The notes beneath the pieces were generated by a model. The model ran no database searches and was not told the origin of the DNA. It saw only the letters and a program-made list of their open reading frames with translations. 20,000 nt of DNA from Psammoneis japonica. Lineage: Eukaryota. The translations under genes and the position numbers were made by a program. The stretch covers positions 118,110-138,109 of the forward strand of contig QPGO01000034.1 in assembly GCA_008632985.1 (NCBI GenBank), in the 5' to 3' direction. This document shows positions 1 through 20,000 of the stretch, piece by piece. Numbering within the stretch: the stretch's first letter is position 1; the number at the start of each line of letters is the position of its first letter.

Positions 1-149
1 GTTGAGAGATGGAGTCTGGAGGAGATTGACGGTCTTCAAAAAAAAAAACACAAAAGATTGTTCATTTTGTTGGCTGCACTTTGGACAACTGCCATCAAGT
101 CATTTGGCACAAGATTGTGCTGAGTGCAATTTCAAGATGTGGTTTCCAG

Positions 150-1181
150 ATGTTTGGCAGGGGTTGAAAGGAAATGTGTTGTCACCAATGGAGATCAACT
201 TGCTGACAAGCAGCCCACCTGCACAACTCTTGCAAACAGACAAGAAAGATGCTGCATGTTTTCATCCCTGGCCAATGTTCTTCATCATGTTGGAGACTTG
301 GGAACAAGAGACTGCATTGCATCTCACATTTAAAACATCTGCTGAACAGATTGAAGCTGACAGCAGCTGCACATTGTTTGCAAGGAGCACACTGCATGGC
401 CATCAAAGGGAGCTCCCGCCAAGAAGCAATGAAGGTTTTGCAGCAGCAGTTTGGATTGAGCCATTTCCTTGGAAGCAGGTGGTGAACATTTGATGTCACA
501 ACATGCAATGCTGGCTGCACAACTGTTTGTCATCCAGCAAACAACAACTGCTGTGTTGCCTTGTGCTGTGGATGGATGTTTGACTGAAGCTGGCTTTTGG
601 TCACCAACTGCTGCATGTCAAGGCTGCTGGGTTGGGTTGGCATCATTTGTGCCCAAGGCTGTCTGAGTTGATCCAGGAAGCCATCAGAAGTGCAAGGAAT
701 GCATCTCATTGCAACCCAATCAGCCAACAGGAACATTGGGATCAAACAAGAAATTGCACATGGCACCAAAGCCACAATGGTGCTGACACAGCTGCACCAT
801 CCTTGCAACTTGACTTTAACAGAAGAACCAAGCATTTTTTTTGTCTTGCAGATCACACACCCTTTCTTTCATCTTCAGAGGGGATTCCATCAAGGCGTGT
901 TTCCTGTCACCAACTGCTTTTTCAGCACTCTCTTCTCTTAAAAAGAATTTTCAAACATTCCAGCAAATGACTGCGCTGCTTTGCCAGATTGTCATCATCC
1001 ACAACCAAAGCACCAGCTCTCTGGTTTTTTGTCTTCATCACTCACTCCCACAACAGCTGCAGTTTGCATTTCTTGACATGCAGGTGATTCAATGCAGCGG
1101 GCTTCAACTCCATCAACCTCTCCTTTGCCACATCCAGGCACTCTGATGGCATGGTCAAACACAACTTTCTGTGTGATCCCA
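150..1181 (-). pseudogene. C-terminal part of a decayed Sola-like DDD transposase (downstream of the LINE insertion)
   Basis: Minus-strand frames give VVFDHAIRVPGCGKGEVDGVEA (GKGEVDG at 1109-1129), resembling the IDRxIxAPGHGKxxVDG third-Asp motif. They also give VAMRCIPCTSDGFLDQLRQPW..QP, resembling AIRRIPC..C...L..PW...QPRY. Contains frameshifts and stops; left boundary approximate. Confidence 0.65.
1166..1181 (+). repeat. Target-site duplication, left copy (TTTCTGTGTGATCCCA)
   Basis: 16/16 identical to 7879-7894; the two copies bracket the retrotransposon remnants. Confidence 0.85.
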
Positions 1182-1254
1182 CTTTTCTGCATGAGCACCT
1201 GTCAACAGTTTCTGTGTGGAATTCTGCATGAATTTTTGCCAAAAACTTGTCACC

Positions 1255-2063
1255 ATGACAATCCCTCCACTCTGCCGCAGGCTGGCCCCACTGGTGATCC
1301 TCAGCCAGATCCTCCACCTGACAAGGACACTGCTCCATCCACTCCAACCAGAGCTGGATCAGGAAAACCCAAAAGCTCTTTGCTCAAGGAGATCACCATC
1401 CATTTTGAACTCACCTCCTTCAATGTTTGCATGTCCACGGCATTGGCCATGGGTCATGCTGTGATTCTCAATGCCCTCCAACAGAAAGCCTCTCATGACC
1501 CATTGATGAATGAGATGACTGTTGTGTTGAACCGGGGTTTGAAAATTCCCAAAATCAATGCAGTTGAGTGGACTTCTGGTCTCACCCACTCTCAGCACTT
1601 TGGTGTGCATTGCATTGGTGGTTCTCATCGTTGCTCCCCAATGTTTGTCATTGCTCACTGCATCCACACCTCACCAGATGTCTGGAACATCCTGTTTGTC
1701 AACAAAGTCTTAAAAGACAATGGAGTTTGTGTGCACCGCCATGAATGGGATGAGACCAGTGTTGATCTTTCTTGAGTCACCTTGCTGGTTGATCTTGCGC
1801 CAAAGCATGGCCCAGTGGATTTAGCCCAACAATTGTTGATGGCTCTTCTTCCACCATGCACTTGCTCAAGTCACACACCTCCCTCCAGTGCCATGGACTG
1901 CACCAAATTGTCATTGAATGAACCTGTTGGCAGATTCACCTTCTCCTCCCCAAATTGCCAGACCATGCATGACCATGTGCCTTCAATGCCAACAGATGCT
2001 CCTTTGACCAATGTGGAGGCAACTTTAATGAGTGCACCCAAGCAGCCACCAAAATTCAGGTGA
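1255..2063 (+). pseudogene. ORF1 remnant of the LINE (N-terminal part only)
   Basis: ATG at 1255, ~70 bp inside the element 5' end. A Pro-rich start is followed by globular-looking sequence (KEITIHFELTSFNV...VLKDNGVCVHRHEWDE...DLAPKHGP) in ORFs 1092-1775 and 1782-2063. Assigned by position upstream of the APE. Confidence 0.55.
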
Positions 2064-2810
2064 GCGCAATCAGAACATCAGAGACATGCCTTGACACTGT
2101 GCAATTCCAAGTTCATCACAGCTGCACGTTGGCAGTGAAATGCTCTTTTGCACCATGGGCAACTCACTTGCTTGTCATCAAAGAATGCCTTCACTGCCCC
2201 GTACAAACTGGGTGGGACAGTGCTCACATCATGCAACTCCCTCTCCGCAAGCCACCAAACTCAACTCAAAGACCCACTGGGATGCTGGTCAATGCAGATT
2301 TTTGACGGAAAACACGGCCATCAAGTCATGTTTGTTTCGTGTTGCCGCATTTGTTCCAACTCTTTGTCATTGGCAGGCAAGACAACCGCGTGCGCTCAGC
2401 AAGTGGCTTTGCTCTGCCAGCAAGGCCAAGTGAATCCAGACCCTCATAGAGAGCCTTTTGCTGCACCAATCTGACTTGCACTGTCGAACAATTCTTGGAT
2501 GACTCAAACCAAGAAGTCATTCTTGTTGGCAATTTCAGCTTGGATTTCTGCCACAATTCCAACACACTTGCTTCCATGGCCCAACAGTTTAACATGTTGG
2601 ATGCCATGCACCACCAACATGAAGACTTTGAATTTTCTGCTTGTGTTCAAGGTTCCAGATGCCTTGATTGTGTCCAAGCAACTCCTGGTGCTTCAGCTGC
2701 TGCAAGACTCTGCGGGTGTGAATCTTTTGGGTGCAGAACATTGTCAGATCACCAAGCTCATTACATGGATTTCAACATGGTTGCTTTGTTTGGAAACCCT
2801 TCCGTCATTC
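2064..2810 (+). pseudogene. APE (exonuclease/endonuclease/phosphatase) domain of ORF2, N-terminally truncated
   Basis: SETCLDT; YKLGGT; DPLGCWS (DPLGRWS); SCCRIC (SAYRVC); TTACAQQ (TTAYxQQ); VILVGNF (ILxGDFN); GSRCLDCV (GSxRIDY); SDHQAHYMDF (SDHRxxxxDF). Confidence 0.85.
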
Positions 2811-3699
2811 TGCCAAGATTCCAGCTCCATGATCTTCAAGCATCTTTGCCAAAACATGTGACTGTGCATGTCTCAAAGCAGTTGATCCTTTGATCACAAG
2901 TCAAAATGTCCTTGCCGGAGCAGAGGCCCTTCTTCAATCAGGGACTCCAAATCATTGTCTTGCTGACAGATTGGACCAAGACATGCTCCAGTCATTGCTG
3001 TCAGCAGCTGAGAAATGCAAATGACACAAAGAACCAGAAAGGTCTGTCAAATTGGCTGGCCAACCTCCAGAAGCAAGTGTTTGTGTCATTGAGGATGATG
3101 GCTGTGTTCCGCAACCACAAGGATGTGGTCCCCTCCATTCTCAGAGCAAAGCACAAATTGTCAACTTCGTTTCTCCTCCCTGCAATGATTCACGAATGTT
3201 CAATGGCCCCACATTGTGCACTTGTTCGGAGTGTTGCCAAGTTGTGAAGGACAGCCAGAAGCACCAAGACACTGAACGTGATGCGCAAATTGCTGAACTA
3301 GAACTCAAAGGCACCAAAAAGTCCCAGGCTCAGGCTAAAGTTCTTTGCAATTTACACTGTGCAGAAGAAACACAGTGAGTCTTCAGAAAAATTAATGCCT
3401 GCAAGAAGAGAGAGGGCTCCAGTGTAAAAGACCATTCAAGTCCCTGCAAACCCAAACAAAAATCAAAGACGTGCAAAACTTGAATGACAGTCAACACCCC
3501 AGAAGATGCAGCCGCAGCGCTGCAGTCCAGGAACCAGCGTCATTTTGGCCAAGCTCATGGTGCTCCACCAACAGTTCCTCCTTCATCTGTTGACCTGGGT
3601 TGCAAAGGCAATGCCACAATGGCAGAGCTCATCTTAGATGGCGAACATGAGACTGGTCAGCTGAAACTTGCTGCTTCTTTGCTCATCCAGCATCTTCAG

Positions 3700-4920
3700 A
3701 GACATGCCCCACCTGCAGTGCGGAACCATGTCTCATCTGACATCTTGCTCTCCAAACCAAAGACATGGTTCGAATCTGCCTCCACATCTCTGAAGTCAGG
3801 ATTGCACCTTGGACATTGGAAAGTGCTGTGTGCTCCTCATTCTCATGCCAAAGATCTGGACTCCCAAGGCAATCCATCCTCAAAGAAAGAACATCTGGAT
3901 CAAGTTCAGCAGACACTGTTTGCAATTTGCCTCAACCTCATCAACTGGGCTTTGAAGTGGGGCTGTTTGTGTGACCATTGGAAAGACATTGCAAACACAG
4001 TGTGATGTTCAAGAAACCAGGCAATGACAAAATCCACCGACTGCAAGTCACGCACATGTGCAAAGCAGATTTTCAAATTGTCACAGTGTCAAATGGCAAG
4101 AATTGGCTCAGCACATGGAGAACCACCAAGTGTGTGATCCTGGCACACATGGATGCCATTGCTTCTTGTCTGCTCAGACTCCAGTGTTTCTTGAGAACCT
4201 GATGTTGGAAATGTCCCAAGCCTCTTGCAAAACTCTGCTGATGAGTGATGATGATTGCACCTCCTGTTGTGATCGAAATGTTCCTGCAATTGTTGGACCA
4301 TGTTCCCAAAGTGATGGAATGGACTTTTGTGTGGTTGAAGTGAACATGTCTGCCCTGCACCATGCTGGACACTGGCTTTGGACCTTGTTGGGACTGGCTC
4401 AGTGGAGTCATGCTCACACTGCTGCACAACCCCTTTGCAGCACAGGTCAAGGCAGCAGGAATTCCCCATGGCATTGGAACACCCCACACAGCTGCCTGTT
4501 TGACATCTTTGATGCAAGAGCCATGGGATCACACTTTGAAACTCCAGACAGCAAGTTCTTTGTCCAAGTTTACAATTGGGGACATGTCAACAACACGTCC
4601 AAACAGGTCAACAACTTTTGAGCAAGTCCGCAACCGTCTGCGCTTGACTTGTCCTTTTCTCTCCAACAGGATGATCAACTTTGGTGTGATTTGCTGGCTG
4701 GACACTGCAGGACACAAACTTGAGTTGCCAAAGTGTTCCTTTCACGCAGTTGAATGGGACTTTGCTGAGTGCGGCAAGTCTCACATCCGCCCACACCATG
4801 ACAACCCAGATGTTCAAATCTTCTCAGCAGACTGGTCCACGTCTTGGTCCAGCAAACAAATTTCAGCACATGCTCTGCACAAAATGCTCTGACATTACGT
4901 TGCACCAATCAGCACCAGAA
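3700..4920 (+). pseudogene. Reverse transcriptase domain of ORF2
   Basis: STSLKSGLHLGHWK; KKPGNDKIHRLQVTHMCKADF (KxPGxxKIHRLRVIHLYEADY); DDDCTSCCDR (DNDAxSCYDR); STGQGSRNSP (GTGQGSGNSP); GHVNNT at 4580-4597 in place of the catalytic G[YF]VDDT; LELPKCSFH. Confidence 0.9.
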
Positions 4921-6169
4921 AGACTCAGTTTCAGAAACTTCTCACCAAGAGCAACACCACAGCTCCATTCCTCTGATCTTGTCCCTTTGACCAGATTGAA
5001 ACATGGCAGTGCTTTCACGTGTGCCACTTGTCTTTGATGACTCATGTCCAGCCAAACTCAACTTTCTACCTGAGGAGCTCTTGACTGTTCAACAAAAAAC
5101 AATGCGGGCTACATTTGCCAAATGCGGGTGCAACAGAAATGTGAAAAGACTCGTCCCATGTGGTCCTCAATCCCTTGGCAGCAAAGGACTCCAATTGTTG
5201 GACATGGAACAATGTGTCACTCAATTGCAACTCTTGTTGAAACACTCACAAGGTGCAACAACAAACCTCAAGTTGGGAGAAGATCAACCTTGCAAAAACT
5301 TGCACATCACGGTTTCCTGGATCCAGCTGAACACAGGAATGGGAGTGAGTTTTTTGTGGGACATTGATGCAGCACTGCCGCATGTGGAATCTTGTTGGTT
5401 TGCTTCAGTCCAGTCATTCTCACACAGGATTCAAGGAAGAATTTACTTGACACAGTCCAGCATGCTCCCTCTCCAATGTGATGACAATCAGGGCATCATG
5501 GACGTGGTCCTCCAATCTCAACTCTTTTCTCATTGTGAAATCAGATGGACAAACTGCTGTTGCTCATGCTTGCAGGTGCTGTCCATGTCCAACATTGCTC
5601 TGTCCAATGGTTTGACATTGGACACAATGAAGGCAGCTGGTGACCCTTGCTTCAGAGCAGTGTCAGCACTTTGAACATGTTGAGCAGTGTGAACCAGGAT
5701 TGAGAGTGTGGGCCACATGGAAGAAGTTTTGTGTGTCCCTGTGCCATCCAAAATCACAGACACTGAAAGAACCTCTCAGAAATTGGTTGGCACCACCATC
5801 CACCAGGATGCGCATGCAAGCAACCATGCATTTTTCTCCCTTGGAGGATCATTTGTGCACCAGGTCTTCCTCTGGGTGCAACACATTTTGAGTGAATGGA
5901 ACCAGAACAGACACACCATCACAGAACTGGAAACAGTGCCGGTCCCATCCAAAGAATCATTTCCGGCAGAACTTTCCATGACAGACGACAGTCGATGGAC
6001 ACTCAATCTCCCATGTGCTGACTTGTCTGATCCACTGATTTCTCGGCTTCCTGATGCATTCCAAGACATGCTGCAATCCTTGCCACAATGGGAGTCAACG
6101 TTGTTCAAAGACCTCAAGTTTCATGTGCCCCTTAAAATGCTGCTGGTTCAATGCTTTTTGTCCTCGACA

Positions 6170-6720
6170 TTGACTGCAGGGAGTGATGGGTCTGCAAATG
6201 AAGGTGCCACCTTTGGTTGGACGATTGCATTGGCAGAACCCCTGCTGGTAGATTGTGCCGGACCAGTTTTTGGAAGACAGCCGTTGTCTCACTGACCAGA
6301 AGCATGTGGAATTCTCTCTGTTTGCCACTTCATTTACAGATTCATGGAACACTGCCACATGAGAGAGTTTCCGGATTTGGACGTGCATTGCAACAACAAG
6401 GCGGTGGTGTCTTGCTTGGAACAGATTGCTCTTAACCTGTCGGCTCCATCTCCTGGAGACCAACTCAATGGCATCTGAGATTTTCACATCTGACACAATG
6501 GAGCCAATGCCCTTGCCTCCAACTGGGACATCATGAACAAGAGATTGCACTTTTGCATGGCAATGGAGGAATCCCACAAATCCAATGCATCCCCATTTCC
6601 TCCACAGGCAAAGTGGGTCAAAGGACATCAAGATTGACATGCCCCGGTTCACACACTTTCACTCAACGCAAGAGCAAACACATGAGCAGACCAGACAGCC
6701 GGCACCTGCCAAGGACATTG
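6170..6720 (+). pseudogene. RNase H domain of ORF2
   Basis: AGSDGSANEGATFGW; GPVFG..PLSH*PEACGILS (SYRAEAYG); CNNKAVV (CDN); NWDIM; TGG GTC AAA GGA CAT CAA GAT = WVKGHQD near 6614-6634. Confidence 0.85.
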
Positions 6721-7001
6721 CAGTCAAGATGCTTCAATGGTTCTGCCCTCCCTCACTGCCACTTGCATTTGAGTTTGCAGGATGGCACATTGACATCAGG
6801 CTACAAACAGCAAGTCAGGCATGCTGCCACCGCTCCGCAACTTTTGGAGTGCATTCTCAATTCTCAAGTGCAGTCAGTGGCATCCAGAAGTGATCAACCT
6901 GACAGATTGCTTGGGATGCTCATGCCATTCTAACAAAAAGGCATTCCAAGCAACACATTGAAACAGCTGAGCTTGTTCACAACCTTCTTCCTGCCAACGA
7001 G

Positions 7002-7760
7002 ATGGTCAACAGATGCAATTCCATCCAACCTCACCATTGCATTCTCTGTGAGCATCTGATGGAGGACAGGGATCATGCACTGTGGTGTCTGCACAATGAA
7101 CCCTGGCACAGAAAATTTTTGCAAGGATTGCAGCATTGTTGCAACCAGATCAACACGATGCCAACGCGGCATGATTTCTCATTGGGTTCCATTCAAGCAT
7201 GGTTTGACAGTGAGATGGTGCGCCCAGACGATTTAGACTGCCACTGCAGAGCCCTGTGGCATGCTCAATCAGATGTGGGATGGCAGCAAGTGTTTGGTGG
7301 AAGGCACTCCACTCTTTGGAATGTGGTCCAGTTGGGGTGTTTGTGTGATTCAGGCATTCTTCATCAGCACCAAGAAGAGAACAAACAGCCCCTGAATTGG
7401 ACCATTCAGATGCGTTTGTTCACATGGAAACAGTGGTGGAGTCTGTGGGAAGAGCATGACCATCATGTGCATGGACACAGTGCAGATTTGAGGACATTGT
7501 CTCAGAGATGAAAGGTTGAGGCCAAATTGACAGCTGCACACAACAAATGCCAAGAATGCCTGGCCAAAGATTGAGGTGTCCTGCTTGATTCTGTGGAAGA
7601 TCATGAACATTTCACAACAACGCACACACAAAATTGGATCTCAATGGTCCAACCCAGACTGAAAGAAAGTCTCAAAGAAGCCAAAAAAGCTGGTGCTTTG
7701 CAGCACTTGCACCATCACCAGTTGCTTCCATCAGGCATCTCCTCAAGGAGATGCTGACTC
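7002..7760 (+). pseudogene. C-terminal region of ORF2 with CxxC...H...C zinc-binding motif
   Basis: CILCEHLMEDRDHALWC; Q..VGWQQVFGGR; WWSLWEEHDHHVHG (W..RN..VHG); TITSCF near the end. 3' limit approximate. Confidence 0.7.
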
Positions 7761-7878
7761 AAGCCAATTGCATTTGCTTCTGCCGCACCCCTGGCAGGGT
7801 GTGCTGGAGGTGTGGGTCAGCTGGTGCCAGTGTTGCTGGGCAAAGGTGCAGCAGCACTTTAAATTGGGTTTGGGCTTT

Positions 7879-7894
7879 TTTCTGTGTGATCCCA
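7879..7894 (+). repeat. Target-site duplication, right copy (TTTCTGTGTGATCCCA)
   Basis: Identical to 1166-1181. Confidence 0.85.
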
Positions 7895-9860
7895 AATCAC
7901 AAGCCATCCCCAATGCAGCCCATGGTTCTTTGACCGCATGAGAAACTTTTCCAACTGAGCATTGACTGTGGTGGTGCTTTGCTTTGAAGAGCCAGAATGA
8001 TGTGCATGGCATGTTTTCTGACCTTGACTTTGCTGCAAATCACATCACAAACTTCGCCTTCTTAAATGGACATTGCTTCATTGTTGCCACAGTGGTCCCC
8101 TGAATTTGGCTGTTGAATTTAGGCTGAAGACACTCAGAGCAGTCAGCAGATTTGAAAATGCTGTTGGCCATCAACTCAAATGCCTTGCAAAGCATTTTTC
8201 TATGCAATGATTTTTTCCAAGAATGGTCATGTGGGGAAGATGGCATTGCAGCTTTTTTGATCTTAGGGTGCAGCTCTCTTTTGCAAAAATCCTGGTGACT
8301 GGCTTGCAAACCCGGCCCCTTGTCAACAAGTTTCTTTGTTGGACCTTTGCACCCTTCCTGCCACCTGGATCTGCCACACAAACACAGGACATGTGTCCAC
8401 AAACATGCCATGCTTGGAACAATGTTTTGCAGTCAAATCCATTGAAACAAAACTTGGGGTGCATTGGGACATTCACTCTGTTCCAACAATGGAGATGAAC
8501 AGGATGGGCAATTTTGACATTCATCAGGAATGCATTTCTAATGAGGGCAATCCTGACCACCCGCATGGCCACAAATGATGGCTGCCATTGCATCTCGAGC
8601 TTTGGGATGAAGGTGGTTGGAATCAGAGCCAAAGGCTTCCTCTTGATGATTTGATTCTTAAACCCAATTGTTTGTTTTGCTGTCACAGTTCTTGGAGGTT
8701 TCAGGGTCATCACTCACAGCCTTCAACCAGCCACTTCTGCTGCACCTGCATCTCTTTCAAAAGCCTTCTTTGAAACCTGCTCAGTGTGTCTTGCAGAAAG
8801 TGCGCACCCACACAATTGCTGCATTGACACATGTTGCATCAACTGTTGCTCATTTTTTGAGGACATGGATTGCTCAGGAATCAAAAAGCAAGACATGGTT
8901 CATTGTTGACAAGGGTCTTGCCATTTGCATCACAAGCAAATTCAAATCCACCAGAATCCACAGGCTGCAACATGTCATTGTGGAGCTGATGCATGGATGT
9001 GCTGCAAAACCATTTGTTCATTCATTTTTTACATCCATCTTTACCTTCAATCAGAGTCAGTGTCTCTTGAGTTGCAATGGGTGGCTGCACTGTGTCAGGC
9101 TTGCAGAGGCTTTGCGGGTCTCAGGGAACACTTTGTGAGGCTGCCAATGGGGCTGCACTGAAGACCACATGACATCTTCTTTGTCCTCAATCAAGGCTGC
9201 CATGGCAATCTTTCCCTGCTTTGTTTGTCAACAAACAGTTGTTGGATTTAGACTGGGTGCACTGGCAAAGTTGTTCAAAGACACTCTGGGTTCATTGGCA
9301 GATTTTTCTAGAGAACTGGAAACTCCAATTGCTGCTGAACAGATGAAAGATTCTCTGTCTCATCAGCAGAGCATTGACCACTGTTGGCATGTTCCCACAT
9401 TTGGCCCAGCTGCTTGGTCATTTGCAAAGCAACATCCTTCATTTTTGGCATTGTCAAACCACAGGCCTCAACATGAAAATTGGAGTCAGGCATTTGCAGC
9501 ATGCAGAGCAATGCACAGGCACATTGCTCCTGAGCAGTGGCGCAGAAGAAGATGGCACATCTTGTGCTGACTGCTGCATGACACAGCACTTGTTCAGGAT
9601 CTTTGTTGATTTTGTCAAAGGATTGAGAATCAAAACAAAAGCATTCTGTGGTGGGCATTTCAGGCCAACAGGAGTTTGGACATCTGGAGCAATTGAGGGA
9701 GTGATGGCAGCATTGTCAGAGGTGAGGTTGGGTGGAGTGGCTGTTGCTCTCATGGTGTTGCTTGTCAGAGATGAAGCAGGATGAGGAAGCAGCTGTTGCT
9801 CCTTCAGCGTCAATTTGGGAGGAGGCAGGTTGTCTTGGAAAGGGCAACCCTTCACAGCAA
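7879..9860 (-). pseudogene. N-terminal and central part of the decayed Sola-like DDD transposase
   Basis: Minus strand, in order: VQPPIATQETL...TSMHQLHNDMLQPVDSGGFEFACDANGK; CHLPHMTILGKNHC; ADCSECLQPKFNSQIQG (first Asp at 8142-8144); HHSGSSKQSTTTVNAQL; VIWDHTE (second-Asp motif, overlapping the TSD). Start approximate. Confidence 0.65.
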
Positions 9861-10949
9861 GACTTTTTGTTTTTGCTGTTGCCAGCTTGCCCTGATGACT
9901 TGTGTTGCCAGCTAACTTTGGATTGCTTCCTTCTCTTGATCATGGTGCATTGGGGATTTGAGAGTGAAAAATGTGCACAAAGAGGGCTGGTGGTTGAGAG
10001 GGATGAGAAACATTGTTTTGTGGCATGCTCTGCAAAAATCAACTGTGCAGTGTCTGGAGAAACAGGGCATGTTTGAATGTCACTTGAGCTGAAGCAGACA
10101 GCAAAGTCAAGCTCCAAAAAATAAAAAAGTGCACGCGCAAAGAGCATTTTTCATGCAGAACATGACACTTGCTAAAAATGGCATTTGTGGCACAAAAAAC
10201 TTCTTCAATTTTGATTGTTTCAAAAATTGAAAGGCAACAAGTGCACACAAAAAAAATTAAAAGGTTTGTGTGCACTCACCCTTCAAAAATTTTGGAAAAG
10301 ATCAAAGTTGAGGGAGCTCATTGTGCCAAATGCAAAAATGGGCCAGTGATGGATTGCAAGCCTGTGTGCAACACCTGGAGATAGAGCAGGCTGGCATGTG
10401 AGTCTTGAAGCTGAGCAAAGTGTGGACATTGTGTCAGACCCATGGCTTCGTGATCCCCTCTTTGGCACACAGTGCTGGGCCTCCCCGACCCCAGGCACTG
10501 GGCGCACCTCTGTCTGACAGGAGCTGGCAACTTCTCAACCAGACATCAGGTTTTGAAGCTCACACAATGGGATGCAGCCAGGCAAATGGCCAAACACCAG
10601 GAGGAAGCAAAGCAGCACAGTCAAGTGCTTCAGAAATTCTTTTTGCCTGCAAACAAGAGTGCTGCTGCACCACAGCCTCTTGTGAATGCAGCAACAGCTT
10701 TCAACTGTGACAAGCACCCAGCCATGTTTCATTTTTGTCCTCCCTTTCTGGGCCAGGAGTGAGCCCAAATGTGGGCGACATGTGAGCAATGGCCTTTTGT
10801 GCACTTTTCTCTTGTTGTGGACAAGGAGAAAAAAAATGATGCCATCAAGCACACACACAGCAAAGTTGCCAAAGCAAAATGACAACTGCAGTTGCCAATG
10901 TTGTCAGCCATTCAAAAAAAAAAGCTGAGCAGGGCTGTTGAATCATGAT

Positions 10950-11064
10950 GAGGGCTTTCACCTCAGCAGACCTTGGCAAAGTTCACAAAAATTCATGTGC
11001 AAAGAACCACAAGCCATTTGGCAATTTTCAAGCCAAAAAGCACCCCCAATGACCACCCTCTTAA
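10950..11064 (-). mobile_element. Putative 5' terminus of the Sola-like element (5'-GAGGGTGGTC... on minus strand) next to TTAA
   Basis: ...GACCACCCTC|TTAA at 11051-11064. GAG...CTC termini and TTAA targets are described for Sola3. It lies ~1.2 kb upstream of the transposase; the partner end is not in the window. Confidence 0.45.
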
Positions 11065-13070
11065 AGAGCACAACAGTGGCACATTTCACTTTTTCAATTG
11101 TCAACAAATGATCATTTGGCTTTGAAAAGGCACAAAAAAGTTCAGCAAACTTTTCAAATTGAGCAAACTTGGCAACTTTGTCATGCATCCAAGTTTTTTG
11201 GCACAAATTTGGTTCTTGCAATTGTGCAGTTTTTGTGTTGTCTGAAGTCCCCAAATTTGTGCATGTGCATTGGCAAATTTGTGCAGAGATTCCTCTGAGG
11301 TCCAAACTTTTGGTGCCCATCAGAGAAAATTTCACTTTTGACAACTTGGCACACTGCATGGGCTGCATTGGTGCAGATGCACAGAACTGTGCAGGTGAGA
11401 TCAGTTTTGTGGGAAAACTCACTGATTTGAATTGTTTGAGCATCAGCAAAGTTTCCATTGAGGATTTTCAAACAGAGCACAAATTTGCTAGAAATTGTGC
11501 ATGAATGTGGACTCTCCGGAAAGCCCCAATGCAGCCAAAGTTGTCATGTCCCAGAGATGACAGCTTTGGATGAAGCCAGGAGCAAGAGTTTTGTGGCGGC
11601 TTTGTCCGCACCACTGGCAGCTGTCATCAATGTGAGAAACAAGCTGTCATGGGTGCCGTTGCTCTTTGATGAGCAGCAACCCCCATTGTCCACCATCCTT
11701 GTTCTCCACAAGAAAGATCTGGGATGAGTCTAGTGGGTGTGTTGTCTGTGAGCACCATCTGCCATGCCAAAACACAGCATCAAGTTGAGTGCACTCTTGC
11801 TGTCTCCAAGGCTTCCTCCCATCCAAGGGTGGTTGCTGGCAAGCCAGGAAGCCACACCATGGCAAACACCTTGAAACACCTTGAGCACCCAAGGAGTGAC
11901 CATCAGCGGCTTTGATCATGAAGTGATGCTGGATGAGATTGGCTGCCCAAGATGACAAAAAGGTTTGAACACCTGATTGAGTGGAGTGCAATGTGCTGAG
12001 AAAGTGCTTTCTTTACAAAGAATTTTTCTCAAGCTGGACTTTTGATGCCTCAAGTGCCCTGTGTGCTGCTGCAGTCAGCTTTGTCCCTTTCAGCATTTTG
12101 CAGAGCTGGGGTGTGAATGATTGAGCAGAGCCTGAGGTTTGTGAATCTCTCGCACAACTTGCATCATGGGAGTGGGTCTGAACCCTCTTCCATGATGCAC
12201 CATGAGCCATCAAGGTGTCAAAGTTGAAGTGCCAGTGCCCTTGTGTCAAATGATGAGCATGTGTTCTTGCATGATTGGTTGGGGCTGTCCAGGGCATCAC
12301 CCTCTGCTGGACATTGTTGGACCCTGGAGGCCATCAACAAAAAGCTTGCCTCCTGCCACTCAGCAGGTTGCTGCCCCAGCCTGTCAGCCCAGCCAGCTCC
12401 ATCTTGCTGCTCTGGGAGCTCCGACATTTGCTTGCAATCCAGCATGTCACTGGCTTTCCACAAGTCCAAAGAGACCTGGAAGACCACGACTTGGTGGATG
12501 GCTGCAGCAAGTTGTCAGAAAAGCTTTGCTTTGATGATGCCAGTTCCTGTGCAATGCTTGGTGGTGCAAAACCATGCAAGGCATCATGGAACTTGACATG
12601 GGCTTTCACATGCAAGCAACATGCTCAGTGCCCCCCACATCACTTCAAGGAGGCTGAAGAAGCCCCTGAAGCCACCCCACTGTCCTTCAGCATTGGGGCC
12701 ATGGGGTCATTCATGTAAAAAATTAGAGTTTGTCTGACTTGCAGTGAGACCACCATGACGACCTGCTGCACCTCCAAGAGACCAACAACCTGAGTCTGAC
12801 ACTGAAGTCCTGAGACATTCTCCCTGCATTCTAGCTGGGAAAACTCAACTTTCATTTGCTTGGCTTTCATGCCACTGTGCACAGCATCAAGCACTGCACC
12901 ATCTCAACAGCACAGCCCAAAATTTGTTGCTCACCTGTTGGTTGGGTTTTTCCTGGATTTTTGTGTCATTTCTTCACCCAATGATCAACTAAATCCATGG
13001 TGGCTTGCAGGCTCCATGCCAGCTGGGTTTGCTTTTTGCTGGCCATTGTTGCCATCCACCCACCAATTGT

Positions 13071-14053
13071 CCAGCATTGCTTTGGGTCACCATGATGAGA
13101 CAAATGTTTGACCCATTGCAATTTGCAACCTTGGTGGCACAACAAGAGGCTGCAACACAAAACTCTCATCATGCACTTTCTTGGCTGTCAGCCAGTGGTT
13201 GCTGGTCACTTGTGGGGCTGGAAAAGATGTGGACAATTGTGACAGGGCATCCAGCATTGCTTTGGATCATCCTTGCTGGGTGCACATTTGACCCACTGCA
13301 TTTTGCAGCTTTGGCAGTGCAGCAAGAAGAGGCCAGAGCACAGCATTCTCATTGCACACTTTGGTCACAAGTGGGCAATTGCTGGTTGCATGTAGGGCTG
13401 GAAAAACACAGACAATTGTTGTGACAGGGTGTTCAGTGTCACTTTGGGTCATCACAATGAGGTGCACATTTGACCCATTGCAATTTACAGCCTTGGCAAT
13501 GCAACAAGAGGCTGCTGCAACACAAAATTCTCATCGTGCACTTTGGTTGGCAGCCGGCTGTTTTGCCAAGTGCCTGTGGGCTGGAAATGATGCAGCTGAT
13601 TGTGACAGGGCATCCAGCATTGCTTTGGGTCATCATGACAAGGTGTGCATTTGACCCATTGCAATTTTCAGCCTTGGTGGTGCAACAAGAGGCTGCAACA
13701 CAAAATTCTCATTGCACACTTTGGTCATTGGTTGGCAGTTGTCAGTTGCTTCCAGGGCTGGAAATGATGCAGATGATTGTGACAGGGCATCCAGAGTTGC
13801 TTTAGGTTGTCGTGACATGATGTGCCCTTGCTCTGTTGCAATTTGCAGCCTTGGCGGTGCAACAAGAAGCTTCAACACAGAAATCTCACAGTGCACGTTG
13901 GTCATTGGTCGGCAGTTGCCAGTCACTTGTGGGGCCAGAAGTGATGCAGATGACTGTGGTGGGGTGTCTGATGCTGATTTGGGTTGTCATGACAACATGC
14001 ATGTTTCATCCATTGCAATTTGTGGTCTCAGCAGTGCAACAAGAGGCTGGAAC
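13071..14053. repeat. Tandem array, ~5.5 units of ~176-182 bp
   Basis: Units start near 13071, 13251, 13433, 13614, 13791 and 13967. Shared core: CCAGCATTGCTTTGGGTCA...TTTGACCCATTGCAATTT...CAACAAGAGGCTGCAACACAAAATTCTCAT...GGGCTGGAAA...TTGTGACAGGGCAT. Confidence 0.95.
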
Positions 14054-14345
14054 TCCATGGGTTTTTTGCACACTTGGTTGTTGTCATTGTTGGAGATGGC
14101 AGGTCACTCATTGCTGTCTCAAGAGCTTTTTAACCCACCTCAACAAAGTTTTTGTTTGACAGACAACTGACATGTCATTTGCAGCAAATGTTGCAGCCAA
14201 CTGGTGGGTGCCACTCAGGTGCAATGAAACAACCAGGAGAGCTGCAGTCCCACACAGAGCAGTGCCTGCCAATGCAGTGCACCATTCTGAACTTTGCAGA
14301 GCATTTTTTCCAAACTGGTGGGCTGTGTTGTGTTTGATGTGGGGA

Positions 14346-14381
14346 AATGGGGGTTTCTTTTTCACAAACAAAAACCCCATT
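14346..14381. other. Imperfect inverted repeat (hairpin) AATGGGGGTTT...AAAACCCCATT
   Basis: Read directly from the sequence; lies between the two tandem arrays. Confidence 0.55.
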
Positions 14382-14430
14382 GGCCAGCACAGGGGTGCTT
14401 TTTTGGGGTTGTTGCAATTTTTGCAGTGTT

Positions 14431-14805
14431 CAGCCTGCAGTTGTTGGGTTGGTTGGTCCCATCAGTGTGTGGGGTCCTTTCACTGTGGAGCAGAGAGTTT
14501 GAACAAGTCTGGTTTTCCTTGGTGAGATGAAGCCACAGCTGCATGACAGTGGCCTTGCAACATTCTTCCACAGGTTTCAAAGTGTTGCCTGGGATCTAAG
14601 AAAGACTGCCAATGCCCTCAGGCTGCAGTTGCTGCATTGGTTGGTCCCACAGTGGTGTCCTTTTACTTTGAAATTAGGAAATGCAAGCCATTCTTCTTGG
14701 TGGGATGAGCCACAACTGCACAAAAGTGGCCTTGCAACACTCCACCACAGCTCTCAAAGTGTTGCCCGGGATGTGCCAAAGATCCTCAGTGCCCTCAGGC
14801 TGCAG

Positions 14806-14836
<31 letters not shown>

Positions 14837-15070
14837 CACATCCAACCAGGACAACACAGTGGATTGTTGTGGTTGTTGTGTTTGTTCATCCCACAATGGT
14901 GACTTTTCACTTTGGAGTTGTTGGGAAACTCAAGCCATCCTGCAGCTCTCAAAGTGTCACCTGGGATCTGCCAAAGACCCCAAGTGCCCTTAGGCTGCAG
15001 CTGTGTTGCATTGGTTGGCCCTGTGACAGTGTCCTTTTAATTTGGAGTTGGGGGCTCAAGTCATCTTCCA
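14431..15070. repeat. Second tandem array, ~3.4 units of ~177-195 bp
   Basis: Units start near 14431, 14619, 14796 and 14991 (CAGGCTGCAG-like). Shared CTCAAAGTGTTGCCTGGGAT...CCAAAGA...TGCCCTCAGGCTGCAG and TTGGTTGGTCCC. Confidence 0.9.
14806..14835 (+). repeat. (TTG)10 microsatellite
   Basis: Ten perfect TTG units inside unit 3 of the second array. Confidence 0.97.
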
Positions 15071-15376
15071 CTGGCAGCAGACAAAATTGAGTCATGTGAC
15101 AGATGTGCATTCTCTGAAGGTTGCTCACATTTGAACCAAATGAAAGACATGCAGTTGTCAGAGGTTGGTGCACTTCTGGGAGATGCAATGGTGGTGGGTG
15201 TCACAAGTTGCCACACAACTGGCACATGCATTGCAGTCATGGCCATTGCAGCTGCAATGGCATGCTGGCATTTAGGATTTGACACAAATTCTGGAAGCTG
15301 ACTTGACCCCTTCATTCTCAATTGTGCCGGTCAATCTCAAATTTGTTTTTGGAAGTGCTGCGGTGGTGACAATGTG

Positions 15377-18300
15377 TCATCTGACACTTGGTTCCTTTTT
15401 TAAAAGTGTTGTGCAATGCCCAATGAGTTTGCATTGTGCAATGAACTCCTTTTTCCTCTTTGGTGTCTTCAGGCTCAGTTTTTTACACACAAGACACCTC
15501 CACTCAGATTCATCACACATGCAACCCTCCACCATGATCAGCACAACACCTCCTGGTCTCATTCTGGCTTTACAGACTTGTTCACAGCACATGTCCTGAG
15601 TGAAGAAGATGAGCTGCTGAGCACTTGATGCAAGGCATTTGTGCATTCAGTGTTTGCATCTGTGTTGCTGGCATTGCCAGAGGTCAATCATGACCTGATG
15701 CAAGCACAATCAACCTTTTCAAGTGCTTTGAATGACTCCTCTTTGTCCAAATCCTCAGTGCCCAACAACAGATTGAACAAACCAAACTGGCTCATTGCTT
15801 TTGTTTGCACTGTGGAGCCAGATGCCAAGAGCAACATGTCAAGAAACAAAAAGAAGAAAAGTCACCTGTGTCACTCACTCCCAATGTCTTGGATTGCTGT
15901 CCCAAGAGTCAATGTGATGTGGAGCTCCCAAAGCACATTCATTCTTTTTGCTTTCAAATGGATGCAATGAGTCTCCAGAAAAATGTTGCCAACATTGTGG
16001 ACCATGGTGTTGACATTGAGCAAAGGACATCACTTGCATGCTGCCATTCTTGCAACATGGGAATGCAAGCCATGCATCACAGTCACATGACAAGAAGTCT
16101 CTGATGAAAATGCCAAGACAAGGCACTGTGCATTGGCCAAAAAGTTTGGTGGCACTTTTGCATTGCTCATTCTTTCATGGTTTTGGAGTGTGTTTGCAGC
16201 AACTGCACAACCTGGCTGCAAGAAATGAAGAACCACCAGTTCTGTTGGAATGGCACATTGCACACTTTTGTCAAGATGTTTTGCCCCCATCTCTTGATGC
16301 ACATGCAGAATGCCTTCAGGTGCCACTCAAGAACAATGCAATTGTTTCATTGTGGCTGCTGTTTTCTGCTGTCTTCAGACAGTCAAAAATCTTTCTAATT
16401 TGGGGATCATGCTCCACAAAGAACGCATTGTCTTGTGCTCCCATTGTTGATCTTCACTCCTCCCACCCATGGCCAAAGCCTTGTTGAGTCTGCTTGCCCC
16501 ATTTGAGTTGCAAGGATTGCACATCCCAGTGTTGCCATCACAAATGCAATTGGGTGGTCCTTCTTGATGCAGCCACTCCACGCTTGGCAGGCATTGATGG
16601 TGACAACCTTTTCTGGTTTTGCACAAGACAATGAGACATGGTTGCACACTGTCTTTTGGGGTTGTTCTTGTTGCCATTTGCACCCCACAAGACACATGTG
16701 GGAGCCAATGGAGAATTTGATTTAGGAGGCTTTGACAAGTCAATGCCAAGTTTCTCAAATGCAGGTGCGCAGCTCTTGTTGGCAGTGCTGGAAAGTCCAA
16801 CATTCAAAGGCTTCCTCATTGCAATGGGGTCAAATGTGAGCCAAACGGAGCAGCCTGTCTGTTTGTCCAACACACTGGTTTTCAAAAGGAAAGCGACACT
16901 TTGTCCAACTCGTTGGCAAGAAAATGCACTGAGAAACCATCCCTGCTGCATTGTGGAGCAGAGACAGGTTGAATGCATCACTGTGCAAGCTGGATGTTGC
17001 AGCTGAGGAGTTTGCAGTGGAAGCCCCTGTCACCACACAAATGGCTTTTTCTCAGCACATTGAAACAAGACAAATCACTGCACAGTGGTCCAAGAGCTTG
17101 TGGCCCTGTCAATGCCAAGACATCTCACTTTGCTTGGCGCTTCATTGTGCTGGCCAACAAGCCCACAATGTCTGCAATGTGCAACATGGGGAAGGTGCAC
17201 TTGAATGTTTTGTGCATCAGTGGTGAGTGGAGTGGGCTCTGTGGAAGCAACACTGAATTCTGTTGTGGAGAGCAGCTCCAAAAAAGACAATGTTCATTGT
17301 GAACAAACCCAACATCAGTTTTGGCCTCTGATGTTTCCACCTGCATGGAGCCAAACACCCTGCAAGCAACCAAATGCAAACATGCAAACATCTTGTGAAG
17401 ACAAAAATGATGGGTGTGGCTCATTGGATTTTCTGCAGGATTCTCATGTGCAGTTTCTGCACATTGATGAATGGTGCCTGCTGCAACAACAAGTGGCCAT
17501 CTTGCTCACCACACAATTTCAAGTTTTGTTGCAACAAACACTGTTGTTGCCAAGAACCTGTCCTCATTGATGCTGTCCCCCCCCCCCCACACACACACAT
17601 TTTGACTCTGCTCTTCTTTGGCGTCAAGTGTGCAGTGCTGTTTTGGATGCAGATCCAGGCAGTTCAATCTCAGTGGTTGATGAAAGGAGCAAGCTCTTGC
17701 CACTGCTTGTGTCTCCCATGACAGATTCACATGTTGGCCCACAATTTCATTCTTCAAAAGCTTCTCCACAAGCCTTGGTGGCTTTTGTTGCCCTCTGAGG
17801 TCACCACCGCTGCATGTCAAATTTCCTTCTTGCTGGAAATTTTGGGTGTTTCCAAGGAAAATTAAGCCGAATCTGAAAGACATGTCAACCTGGCCAATGA
17901 GATGCATGGGGACAAAAAAAATGAGCATTGGAGACAAAGTTGCTTTTCATTTTTTATCTTGGTGCTTTTGGCGGCACTGGCAACATGAACTTTGGCTCCA
18001 CGTGCTGGATCTTTCAGGTGAGGGCTGCATTTGGGATGCTTCTTCAATTCACTGTCTTCATTTGCTTTGCCATGACATCAATGGTGCAATGAGTGTGATT
18101 CCAACCATGACAAAAAAGCACAGACCTGTTTTTTTAAAGTGTTGTCAGTGCCTTTACCCTGCAACCGGCAAACCCACACTTCCAGTGTGGACTGCCTGAT
18201 GATGTCACAGCACAGGCACAAGTGGATCATCCAGAGTTTGCATGGGCCGCTGGTGGCACCCTTCAAAAGCAACATGCTGTGCCAAGCCATTTTCATTTGT

Positions 18301-19219
18301 TGAAAAATGCTGATTTTGAGTTGTCAAACATGACTCGTGGCACAATCCATTTTTGTTCAATTTTGGTTTCAATCACAACTGTCAAATGTCACATTGGAAC
18401 ATTGTTGCAGCATCAAAGCTTTTGTCTTGGGATCCCTGCAGAACAGTCTGTTGAACAATTGTTTTTTCATTGCCTGGCACATGACACAAATCAATGGAAT
18501 GACCACTGCTTTCAGGGCCAACAAGACTTGTCTCTAGACCAACAAATCTGTGTTTCTGTGCCACAATGGTTTGTCTCATTTTGTGAGACACAACTTCTGG
18601 ACTTGTTGTTTGACCTTGTTTCATGAATGCCTCTCATCCCACCTGATTCTTTGCATCAACATGTGCAAATTGAGCTGCCAGCCCCAGGACTTCTTCACAG
18701 CCCAAGTCCACATTTCTTGCTGTCAACACACACACAATTCAGTTGGCTCAATGGCTGGGTTTTCCACTTTGGCTTGGGCCATTGCTCTTGCTTTGTCAAC
18801 TGAAACTTGTTTTGACAGATGCTTCACAGTGTCCCTGCCCACATGTTTCAGCAGCTTTTTGTTCAGTGTTGCCTCCTTCACACTGTTGATGGCAGCGGAG
18901 GAGTTGAGCAGCAGCAAGCACACCATTCCCAGCATTGACACATTTTGTTGGTGAGTGAGCTAAAACTTGTTGGGAAGGTGTCTTGGTGTTAGTTGGTTGG
19001 GTTGTTGAGCTTGCTGTTGGGAAATTCCACAAGTGCAGCTGCATCATCATTCTCAAAACTCTCCCCTTTGGTCTCCTCCTCTATGTTGTCAGAACATTCA
19101 ACAGCATCCTGAGTGCACGACTCAAAGTCTGTTGACTGATCAGTTGGTGAGTCATCCACAATGTGGCCCTCATCTTCAAAGTCACCTTTGAAATCTGCTG
19201 TTGCCTTGTTGCATGCCAT
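15377..19219 (-). pseudogene. Large decayed ORF, possibly a transposase (Academ/DUF6589-like), with an acidic N-terminal tract and a C-terminal Cys-rich PHD-like remnant
   Basis: Acidic segment at 18989-19219 (DFEDEGHIVDDSPTDQSTDFE...EEETKGESFENDD) and helical-looking 18723-18941. Weak motifs FGCLQ....WKH near 17340 and DPIAM...LDF...NLAL...MATRT near 16660-16830. CEQVC...EGCMCDESEWRCLVC at ~15485-15590. Family call is tentative. Confidence 0.35.
17577..17598 (+). repeat. C12 homopolymer followed by (AC)5
   Basis: Read directly from the sequence. Confidence 0.9.
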
Positions 19220-20000
19220 CCTGTCACCTGGTGTGTCATCAGCATTCTGCCTCTCATGAGCACTGCACCATCCACAACAGACTGTTCTTGTGGTGCCATG
19301 TGCTGTGTGGTGTCAGCCATGACACAGAAATTGGCCACCATGTGCTGCTTCATTTTTTGTGACCAGTTGTCAGATGATCTGCTTCATTCTCAAGCACCAA
19401 CATGGGCAGGCACGGATTGTTGAGGCCAAGAGACTTCTGCCAAACCAACACCAAACTGTGCCTTTTTAGGTTTGTTGCCACACTGATTTTTCTGCCAATG
19501 TTTGCATCACCTCACATTGTTGGAATCCATCTGTCATTTTGCTTGATGCTTGGGTCAATCCACTCAAGTGCTTTTTGCCTTTTTTCTGTGCTCATGCTGA
19601 ATTTCTGCTCTGGACAATGGCACAACAATGACACATCATGTGACCCCCACACTGACAATCACAAAGAGCAGCAGTTGTGCACAAGAGAGAAAACTTGCAC
19701 TGCTGCATTGTGGATGCTGTCAACATGGTCAGCATGGTGGGACTGCACTTTTTTGTCATTTCGGTGGCCTTCAATGGTTGTCAAACCAGCAAGTGAATGT
19801 TGCCAAAAGACCATCCCACTGGGCTGCCTGTGCTCCTCATTGATGCACTTGCCTTGGCAGCTTGTGATGGCTCTGTGGGTGGGTTGCCAAAGGTGTGAAT
19901 GCAAACTGCAAACTTGCACAACAACAAGCACCCTGCTGATGCCAAATGACAAATCACACAAACCACCAAATGTTTCACTCCAAAGAGTGAGACAAAAAAA

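Follow-up and report, generated by a model that had tools for sequence, protein, structure and literature searches.

How does chromosomal DNA come to lose both TpA and CpG almost entirely? The question is raised by a 20-kb stretch of contig QPGO01000034.1 (positions 118,110 to 138,109, forward strand; assembly GCA_008632985.1, deposited as Psammoneis japonica), referred to here at its full length as the window. The window holds a decayed retrotransposon of the long interspersed nuclear element (LINE) type, tandem repeats and other DNA, and in all of it TpA and CpG have given way to TpG and CpA. An earlier interpretation made without database searches (the sequence-only reading) proposed a hypermutation akin to fungal repeat-induced point mutation (RIP), acting on a LINE, a DNA transposon and tandem repeats alike through a pathway that had not been described. 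Its TpA-specific process on DNA stands. Its RIP-like trigger and its DNA transposon find no support here, and its lack of a described pathway is out of date because a preprint, Mettrop et al. 2026 (bioRxiv 10.64898/2026.01.13.699255), describes TpA to TpG/CpA hypermutation in Bigelowiella natans.

TpA and CpG are erased throughout the window

Base counts of the window (A 5125, C 4832, G 4599, T 5444) predict 1395 TA and 1111 CG steps. Counted over the whole window, 76 TA and 139 CG are present, which corresponds to observed/expected (o/e) ratios of 0.054 and 0.125, respectively, and to a TpA frequency of 0.0038; across 200 mononucleotide shuffles TA averaged 1398 (sd 28) and CG 1110 (sd 25). 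The two transition products are in excess (TG = 2294, o/e 1.83; CA = 2340, o/e 1.89), and the other dinucleotides deviate from expectation by no more than ~25%, with TC at o/e 0.94. Inspection of single 1-kb bins reveals depletion in 20 of 20 (TA o/e 0.03-0.09, CG o/e 0.02-0.27) and a ~1.85-fold enrichment of TG + CA in every one, and all 77 sliding 1-kb windows combine a TA o/e of 0.117 or less with a mean TG/CA o/e no lower than 1.68. These counts confirm a 20-kb block in which TpA and CpG have been almost wholly turned into TpG and CpA, an extreme and non-random state. The program count also reproduces exactly the 3 TA and 4 CG that the sequence-only reading had counted by hand at 18001-18600, and its impression that the rest of the window looks similar extends to every 1-kb bin.

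The same state is visible in the codons. Across the six frames, each frame holds 0-2 TAT and 1-7 TAC codons for Tyr, and the product codons number 179-211 (TGT), 180-255 (TGC), 169-215 (CAT) and 129-191 (CAC). Nearly all stops in the six frames are TGA. Translations with almost no Tyr and much Cys and His, as remarked on earlier, are what these counts give.

The level of depletion is uniform across element boundaries in 1-kb bins. CG counts per kb are 12-16 in the bins of the LINE versus 1-9 elsewhere, with TA at its floor throughout, and outside the LINE the o/e ratios are 0.03-0.08 for TA and 0.02-0.11 for CG. Were the LINE the youngest part, as we infer, the TpA process would be the faster of the two, because CG is less erased in the LINE bins and TA is at the floor everywhere. 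The sole visible local relaxations both lie in the LINE: seven CpGs survive within 90 bp at 2306-2393, in its 5' part, and five TpAs within 130 bp at 3299-3425, in a Lys-rich linker. Overall G+C is 47.2%, compared with 47.9% in relatives of the LINE, and this near-47% value is retained because the TpA process raises G+C and the CpG process lowers it.

The block and the features recognised in it are as follows.

1-20000, no strand: continuous block stripped of TpA and CpG (dinucleotide counts)
1985-7709, + strand: decayed, nearly full-length non-LTR (long terminal repeat) retrotransposon of the APE (apurinic/apyrimidinic endonuclease) type (phmmer, tblastn)
10673-12673, no strand: single-copy segment lacking paralogues at >=80% identity in public run X1, equally depleted, no recognisable coding (depth, Pfam)
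13035-14108, no strand: six tandem copies of a ~177-bp unit, 61-81% alike (repeat alignment)
14531-15004, no strand: second repeat set with a spacing of 177-195 bp, and a (GTT)n run at 14805-14836 (repeat families D4 and D5)
16352-16546, + strand: coding fragment of a DENN domain (Rab guanine nucleotide exchange factor type), broken by TGA (Pfam PF02141)

Relatives of the LINE keep TpA and CpG

The LINE was recognised through its relatives. A phmmer search with the read-through of 4028-6700 (X at each stop) returned 1222 relatives at E <= 0.001, of which 54 reach E <= 1e-30 and the best 8.9e-86; the best-scoring are mostly ~1200-2000 aa long, those with names come from the diatom Fragilaria crotonensis, and most others are metagenomic. 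By tblastn, residues 40-1922 of the best relative (P0001, 1934 aa) map to 1985-7709 with several frame changes and ~19 in-frame stops, and the high-scoring segment pairs of 150 relatives together span 1272-7733. The parts of the element are an APE endonuclease, a reverse transcriptase and an RNase H-like C-terminal part. When five relatives were compared with Pfam, Exo_endo_phos (PF03372) was found in four and a weak RVT_1 (PF00078) in two; Pfam searches of 16 native open reading frames (ORFs) of the window and of the read-through of 2401-7601 gave no endonuclease or reverse transcriptase domain. Judged from these alignments, 1985-7709 is a nearly full-length, dead APE-type LINE, its domain order being read through its relatives only. 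Word-index protein searches with the window's reverse transcriptase ORF and a 549-aa read-through gave no match, and a comparison of window protein with metagenome contigs gave 10 pattern matches, none of them confirmed. Annotation of transposons that relies on Pfam would miss such blocks, given a reverse transcriptase invisible to Pfam at a phmmer E of 8.9e-86.

The control for composition comes from 80 loci in metagenomes that belong to this LINE family. Their TA o/e is 0.39-0.85 (mean 0.66), their CG o/e 0.40-1.12 (mean 0.91) and their TG/CA o/e ~1.16, and the lowest TA o/e among 1779 1-kb windows of these loci is 0.20. The copy in the window has a TA o/e of 0.057 and a CG o/e of 0.22. Depletion of TA and CG is thus not a trait of the LINE family. 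With the mean o/e of the relatives as its point of departure, the window has lost 1723 TA + CG and gained 1741 TG + CA, and the total of pyrimidine-purine (YR) steps is unchanged (4849 versus 4832). Two of the 80 loci, L063 and L064, come closest to the pattern of the window (TA o/e 0.51-0.54, CG 0.40-0.46, TG/CA 1.37-1.53) and probably reflect ordinary methylation-linked CpG decay.

Both changes depend on the dinucleotide

To read the direction of change, 150 relatives were aligned to the window by tblastn, and codon columns were kept where at least 8 relatives covered the position and at least 60% of them agreed (494 columns). Conserved Tyr is retained in none of 22 columns; it is replaced by Cys (TGY) in 10, His (CAY) in 7, Phe (TTT) in 3 and Trp (TGG) in 2. 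Conserved Arg is retained in 7 of 31, the remainder including 9 Gln, 7 His, 4 Cys and 1 TGA stop, so that 21 of the 31 columns have gone to CAN or TGN. Other conserved residues survive in 320 of 441 columns, with Trp at 23/24, His at 19/20 and Cys at 7/7. The Tyr content of the relatives is ordinary (2.4-5.0% in the 60 listed).

Individual positions named in the sequence-only reading behave accordingly, with one correction. TGT stands at 2669, 4268 and 6305, where Tyr occurs in 22/28, 93/106 and 39/57 relatives, respectively, and the change of SYR to SH* at 6290 appears as CAC followed by TGA, where 33/57 relatives have Tyr and then 57/57 have Arg. At 4583, a change of YVDD to HVNN had been read from CAT GTC AAC AAC. 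The step from DD to NN at 4589-4592 holds (Asp in 109/111 and 108/111 relatives), but the first residue is Phe in 105 and Tyr in 5 of the 111 relatives; the family motif is FVDD and not YVDD, and a Tyr origin has to be given up.

The neighbouring base decides which sites change. For residues whose codons start with A (I, M, T, N, K), the first base has become G in 10 of 11 columns after T versus 1 of 55 otherwise (Fisher 6e-10). For residues whose codons start with G (V, A, D, E, G), it has become A in 13 of 21 after C versus 1 of 100 otherwise (Fisher 3e-11); put otherwise, C precedes 13 of the 14 first-base G>A changes. The A:T to G:C change needs TpA and the decay of CpG needs CpG, and both processes are therefore strictly dinucleotide-specific. 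The context test upholds the earlier claim of a second, TpA-specific A:T to G:C process beside CpG decay, and the TpA-specific excess of A to G whose lack would have spoken against that claim is present.

The changes were made in chromosomal DNA

Six tandem copies of the 177-bp unit allow the timing of decay to be read. At 33 of 47 YR steps some copies carry TG and others CA, versus 10 of 49 purine-pyrimidine (RY) steps with a like mixture of GT and AC, and a few copies still carry CG or TA at YR steps. Such mixing implies that CG and TA decayed separately in each copy, after amplification and on the chromosome, which bears out the earlier view that the process acts on genomic DNA and not on a retrotransposon RNA. 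Both strands are affected equally (TG 2294 versus CA 2340). Long runs of only TG or only CA are absent from the window (runs test z +1.7), and overdispersion of TG/CA is 1.15-1.36 versus 1.5-2.6 in the GT/AC control (bins of 25-200 events). Direction, dinucleotide specificity and DNA-level timing of both processes are all displayed by these comparisons.

ADAR-type editing of retroelement RNA would share a neighbour-base rule with the window, since ADARs prefer a 5' U (as cited by Mettrop et al.). However, the tandem copies decayed in place, neither they nor the DENN fragment nor the single-copy DNA were ever retrotransposed as a unit, and the equal effect on both strands does not suit editing either.

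Surviving sites carry a flank preference

The 76 TpA and 139 CpG that survive are test sites offered by the window. Pooling strands (152 flanks) and taking expectations from the flanks of TG/CA, the base 5' of the T of a surviving TA is A in 6 cases versus 37 expected and T in 79 versus 42.5 expected (chi-square p = 3e-14). ATA/TAT is nearly extinct, and the 76 surviving sites lie almost exclusively in YTA/TAR contexts (TTAA 19, TTAG 14, TTAC 14, CTAA 9). Oddly, TTAC is found 14 times and its complement GTAA only twice. Residual CpGs sit mostly in G+C-rich flanks, with SCGS accounting for 63 of 139. Any candidate deaminase or thymine oxygenase has to satisfy the flank bias of TA.

A thymine oxygenase enters because TpA is self-complementary, so that a change of T to C reads as a change of A to G. 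The TpA step could act on thymine if a TET/JBP-type oxygenase produced 5-hydroxymethyluracil (5-hmU) or a base-J-like modification that was then mispaired or misrepaired. Early work on Crypthecodinium reported 5-hmU preferentially at TA and TC, the repeats of Breviolum are enriched in it (both in the text of PMC11071213), and joint decay of CpG suits a heavily modified block of DNA. In Breviolum, however, the same text gives no TA preference, nothing ties 5-hmU to the source organism, and TpC is undepleted here (o/e 0.94) though TC is the second reported 5-hmU context. We regard thymine modification as unlikely.

Public reads reproduce the sequence

Public run X1 contains 91% of the 31-letter words sampled from 2001-9000. 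Contigs built from 31-letter words of X1, with a word depth of 62-72, agree with the window over ~10,966 bases, in which 16 letters differ, and the depth of the window's own contig is ~65 (65.4). Clean contigs at ~65x depth indicate accurate reads, and the 16 mismatches in ~11 kb indicate that the X1 data are not identical to the assembly; X1 is possibly the source sample of the assembly and hence not fully independent. Runs X2 and X3 contain next to none of the stretch, and no RNA run is listed among those that contain it. An artefactual origin of the pattern is very unlikely on this evidence. A base-calling artefact of nanopore sequencing at modified bases was considered and rejected, as the clean 31-mer contigs of X1 at ~65x reproduce the window. 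The sequence-only reading would have failed had reads not supported its bases; the X1 contigs agree with them, again with X1 possibly the source sample.

An artefact could still draw on X1 being the assembly's own data, and avoidance of TA and CG throughout the genome on the window having no normal flank. Set against these are the ~65x contigs with 16 mismatches in ~11 kb and the consideration that a proteome all but devoid of Tyr codons, and of TAA and TAG stops, would not be viable. RNA editing, artefact and genome-wide avoidance are, even when taken as one group, hardly credible.

Read depth also bears on whether duplication triggers the process. Summed over X1 contigs, which adds paralogues of at least 80% identity, depth in most bins is 2 to ~37x single copy. 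The upper value belongs to 7338-8004, the most abundant repeat (summed depth ~2430, ~37x single copy), which comprises the 3' end of the LINE and sequence beyond it. A homology-dependent, RIP-like system, which would recognise duplicates by pairing and then mutate them at a different dinucleotide, gains from the window being mostly repeated and from depletion of the LINE, of the tandem units and of a DENN fragment that is itself multi-copy. In bins 10673-12673, however, summed depth is 67.7-71.4 versus 65.4 for the window's own contig, and depletion is equal (TA o/e 0.04-0.08, CG 0.06-0.10), although duplicates now below 80% identity would escape this measure. Depletion is moreover uniform across element boundaries, and the hypermutated insert of a nucleocytoplasmic large DNA virus (NCLDV) in B. 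natans is single copy in the preprint's account. A RIP-like mechanism is accordingly judged decidedly improbable, and the single-copy-depth bins give no support to the repeat-induced trigger of the sequence-only reading.

Among the 40 listed of 1968 differences between X1 and the window, there are eight whose distance to a contig end is 200 letters or more. Three are CG>TG, two TG>CG, two TA>TG/CA and one a transversion; that is to say, 7 of 8 listed high-confidence differences fall on CG/TA to TG/CA exchanges, yet TA + CG bases make up only ~2% of the window. With 7 of 8 differences on ~2% of the bases, TA and CG steps look unstable between two samplings. Hypermutation of the window DNA is possibly ongoing.

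These differences, 5 at CpG and 2 at TpA, would also suit a single pathway for both steps, either a polynucleotide deaminase with dual A/C specificity or repair recruited to silent chromatin, with methylation unneeded. Similar erasure outside the LINE (TA 0.03-0.08, CG 0.02-0.11) and the ADAT2 enzymes able to deaminate A as well as C in DNA, as cited in the preprint, point the same way. Against a common pathway, change at A requires a T on its 5' side and change at C a G on its 3' side, TA has been erased further than CG within the LINE (o/e 0.057 versus 0.22), which implies unequal rates, and the B. natans lines of the preprint have 230 of 231 changes at TpA with none reported at CpG. We hold a single pathway to be quite unlikely.

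A separate observation concerns 18533-18621 (89 bases), for which runs X1 and X3 hold a ~81% identical contig with TA- and CG-rich flanks. This contig could be an unmutated relative, in which case the two would form a before/after pair.

Other contents of the window

The DENN match (PF02141, E 5.4e-07, 30.2 bits versus a cut-off of 23.4) covers residues 451-515 in the frame from 15002. In a weak match to DENND1B (3tw8_A, E 0.2), 'YIPVLP' appears in the window as 'HIPVLP'. The fragment has ~4x summed depth in X1 and could represent a family of pseudogenes or part of a gene that a repeat has carried along.

Read-through Pfam scans covered 2401-7601, 7601-12600 and 15001-20000. On both strands, 7601-12600 gave no family, and 15001-20000 gave DENN only and no transposase; the DNA transposon of the sequence-only reading thus finds no transposase in either interval. 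Rfam gave nothing credible for the whole window at the gathering threshold or for 12800-15300 at E <= 1, and the 177-bp tandem unit is not, as far as such models can tell, a recognisable RNA gene.

Discussion

The window is probably the product of two dinucleotide-specific processes that were co-targeted to one silent domain and came near saturation on chromosomal DNA. The block would be silent, repeat-rich DNA in which the decayed LINE lies alongside satellite-like repeats in tandem, a piece of a gene and sequence that is not recognisable. One process would take TpA to TpG/CpA, an A:T to G:C change at a palindromic step with the signature found in B. natans. The other would take CpG to TpG/CpA, most simply by deamination of 5-methylcytosine (5mC) in the same silenced chromatin, and every YR step would end as TG or CA. 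The CpG arm would accordingly be driven by methylation, and targeting would follow chromatin or foreign-DNA status, not sequence homology. Depleted targets include the LINE, tandem repeats, the DENN fragment and single-copy DNA that could not be annotated, and the coincident deep loss of CpG points to silent, probably methylated, chromatin as the target rather than to viral origin.

The TpA arm would be enzymatic. By analogy with B. natans, for which Mettrop et al. propose adenine deamination in DNA by an ADAT2-like protein, we tentatively put forward the same chemistry with an ADAT2/TadA-like candidate, a possibility favoured here over a modified-thymine route for the TpA step.

Several observations weigh against a two-process account of this kind. 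No flank of normal composition lies within the window, and a localised effect is therefore not shown; loose contig ends from the same runs have ~9 TA and 11 CG in ~190 letters outside repeat-type ends (hand count), though contigs with such ordinary TA and CG could belong to other organisms. CpG is not hypermutable in the B. natans lines, where 1 of 231 changes is not at TpA (Mettrop et al.), and here CpG differences between samplings equal or exceed those at TpA (5 versus 2 among the 40 of 1968 listed), which makes a poor fit to a simple copy of the B. natans case. The block also holds a host-type DENN fragment and single-copy DNA, and so is not foreign DNA alone. No processive single-strand signature supports a deaminase, although saturation would erase one. 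Finally, since TpA is palindromic, deamination of A and modification of T would be indistinguishable by sequence.

A stronger version of the two-process account is a chromatin-wide, homology-independent double programme that takes TpA and CpG to TG/CA at comparable per-site rates throughout the silent domain. We find it somewhat doubtful. If true, it would represent either a second, unreported arm of the B. natans system or a defence of the same kind in another lineage, and the near-absence of ATA/TAT would be the first read-out of the wider sequence preference of the enzyme.

Comparison with known systems

Fungal RIP resembles the window in that dense transitions at one dinucleotide wreck repeats and foreign DNA, leaving copies riddled with stops and mostly alignable. 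In contrast, RIP takes CpA to TpA (C:G>T:A, enriching A+T) and so creates TpA, whereas the window has destroyed TpA through A:T>G:C. The excess of TpA left by RIP is missing here (TpA o/e 0.054, CpA o/e 1.89).

Decay of CpG through 5mC, as in vertebrates, many protists and fungi, is likewise a strand-symmetric change of CpG to TpG/CpA, and the window carries this signature. Vertebrate bulk DNA has a CpG o/e of ~0.2-0.25, and the CG o/e of 0.02-0.11 outside the LINE is deeper than that. Hyper-editing by ADAR and mutation by APOBEC3 share deaminase-type transitions, a neighbour-base rule and selfish or viral nucleic acids as targets. They differ in acting on RNA or single-stranded cDNA in one-strand tracts, whereas the window was changed as double-stranded chromosomal DNA, in place and on both strands.

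Among the literature found, a single work, bioRxiv 10.64898/2026.01.13.699255, describes TpA-specific hypermutation, and nothing was found that pairs B. natans with cytosine methylation. As its text describes, 15 mutation-accumulation lines of B. natans revealed two integrated viral regions with ~6e-7 mutations per site per generation, ~1000x the genome rate; 230 of the 231 de novo changes in hypermutable regions are A>G/T>C, all on TpA. The genome also has 124 clusters of TpA-poor, CpA+TpG-rich 1-kb windows, rich in transposon genes. The window resembles that system in several respects. Changes in both are A:T>G:C confined to TpA, all 77 sliding windows here fall within the preprint's thresholds for TpA-poor, CpA+TpG-rich DNA, transposon-type (endonuclease-reverse transcriptase) coding sequences are among the targets described in both, and the TpA frequency of the window (0.0038) is of the same order as that of the most depleted sequences there (0.0018). 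In contrast, the inserts described in the preprint are TpA-rich (Rho 0.45; 3.3% and 9.2% TpA) and the window is at the floor (0.054), CpG has no mention in the preprint's main text and is erased in the window, and the block here also contains satellite-like repeats, the DENN fragment and single-copy DNA.

So far, targeted A:T to G:C hypermutation has been described for resident chromosomal DNA in that single 2026 preprint alone, and the window would be its end state; should the source be an organism other than B. natans, this defence would be more widespread than reported. On the strength of its composition, the window appears to be a further case of that kind, driven to saturation and accompanied by a signal at CpG that the preprint's main text does not report. 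New relative to that text are the near-saturated loss of TA, the loss of CpG, the flank bias of surviving TA, and the presence of a DENN fragment and single-copy DNA within the block.

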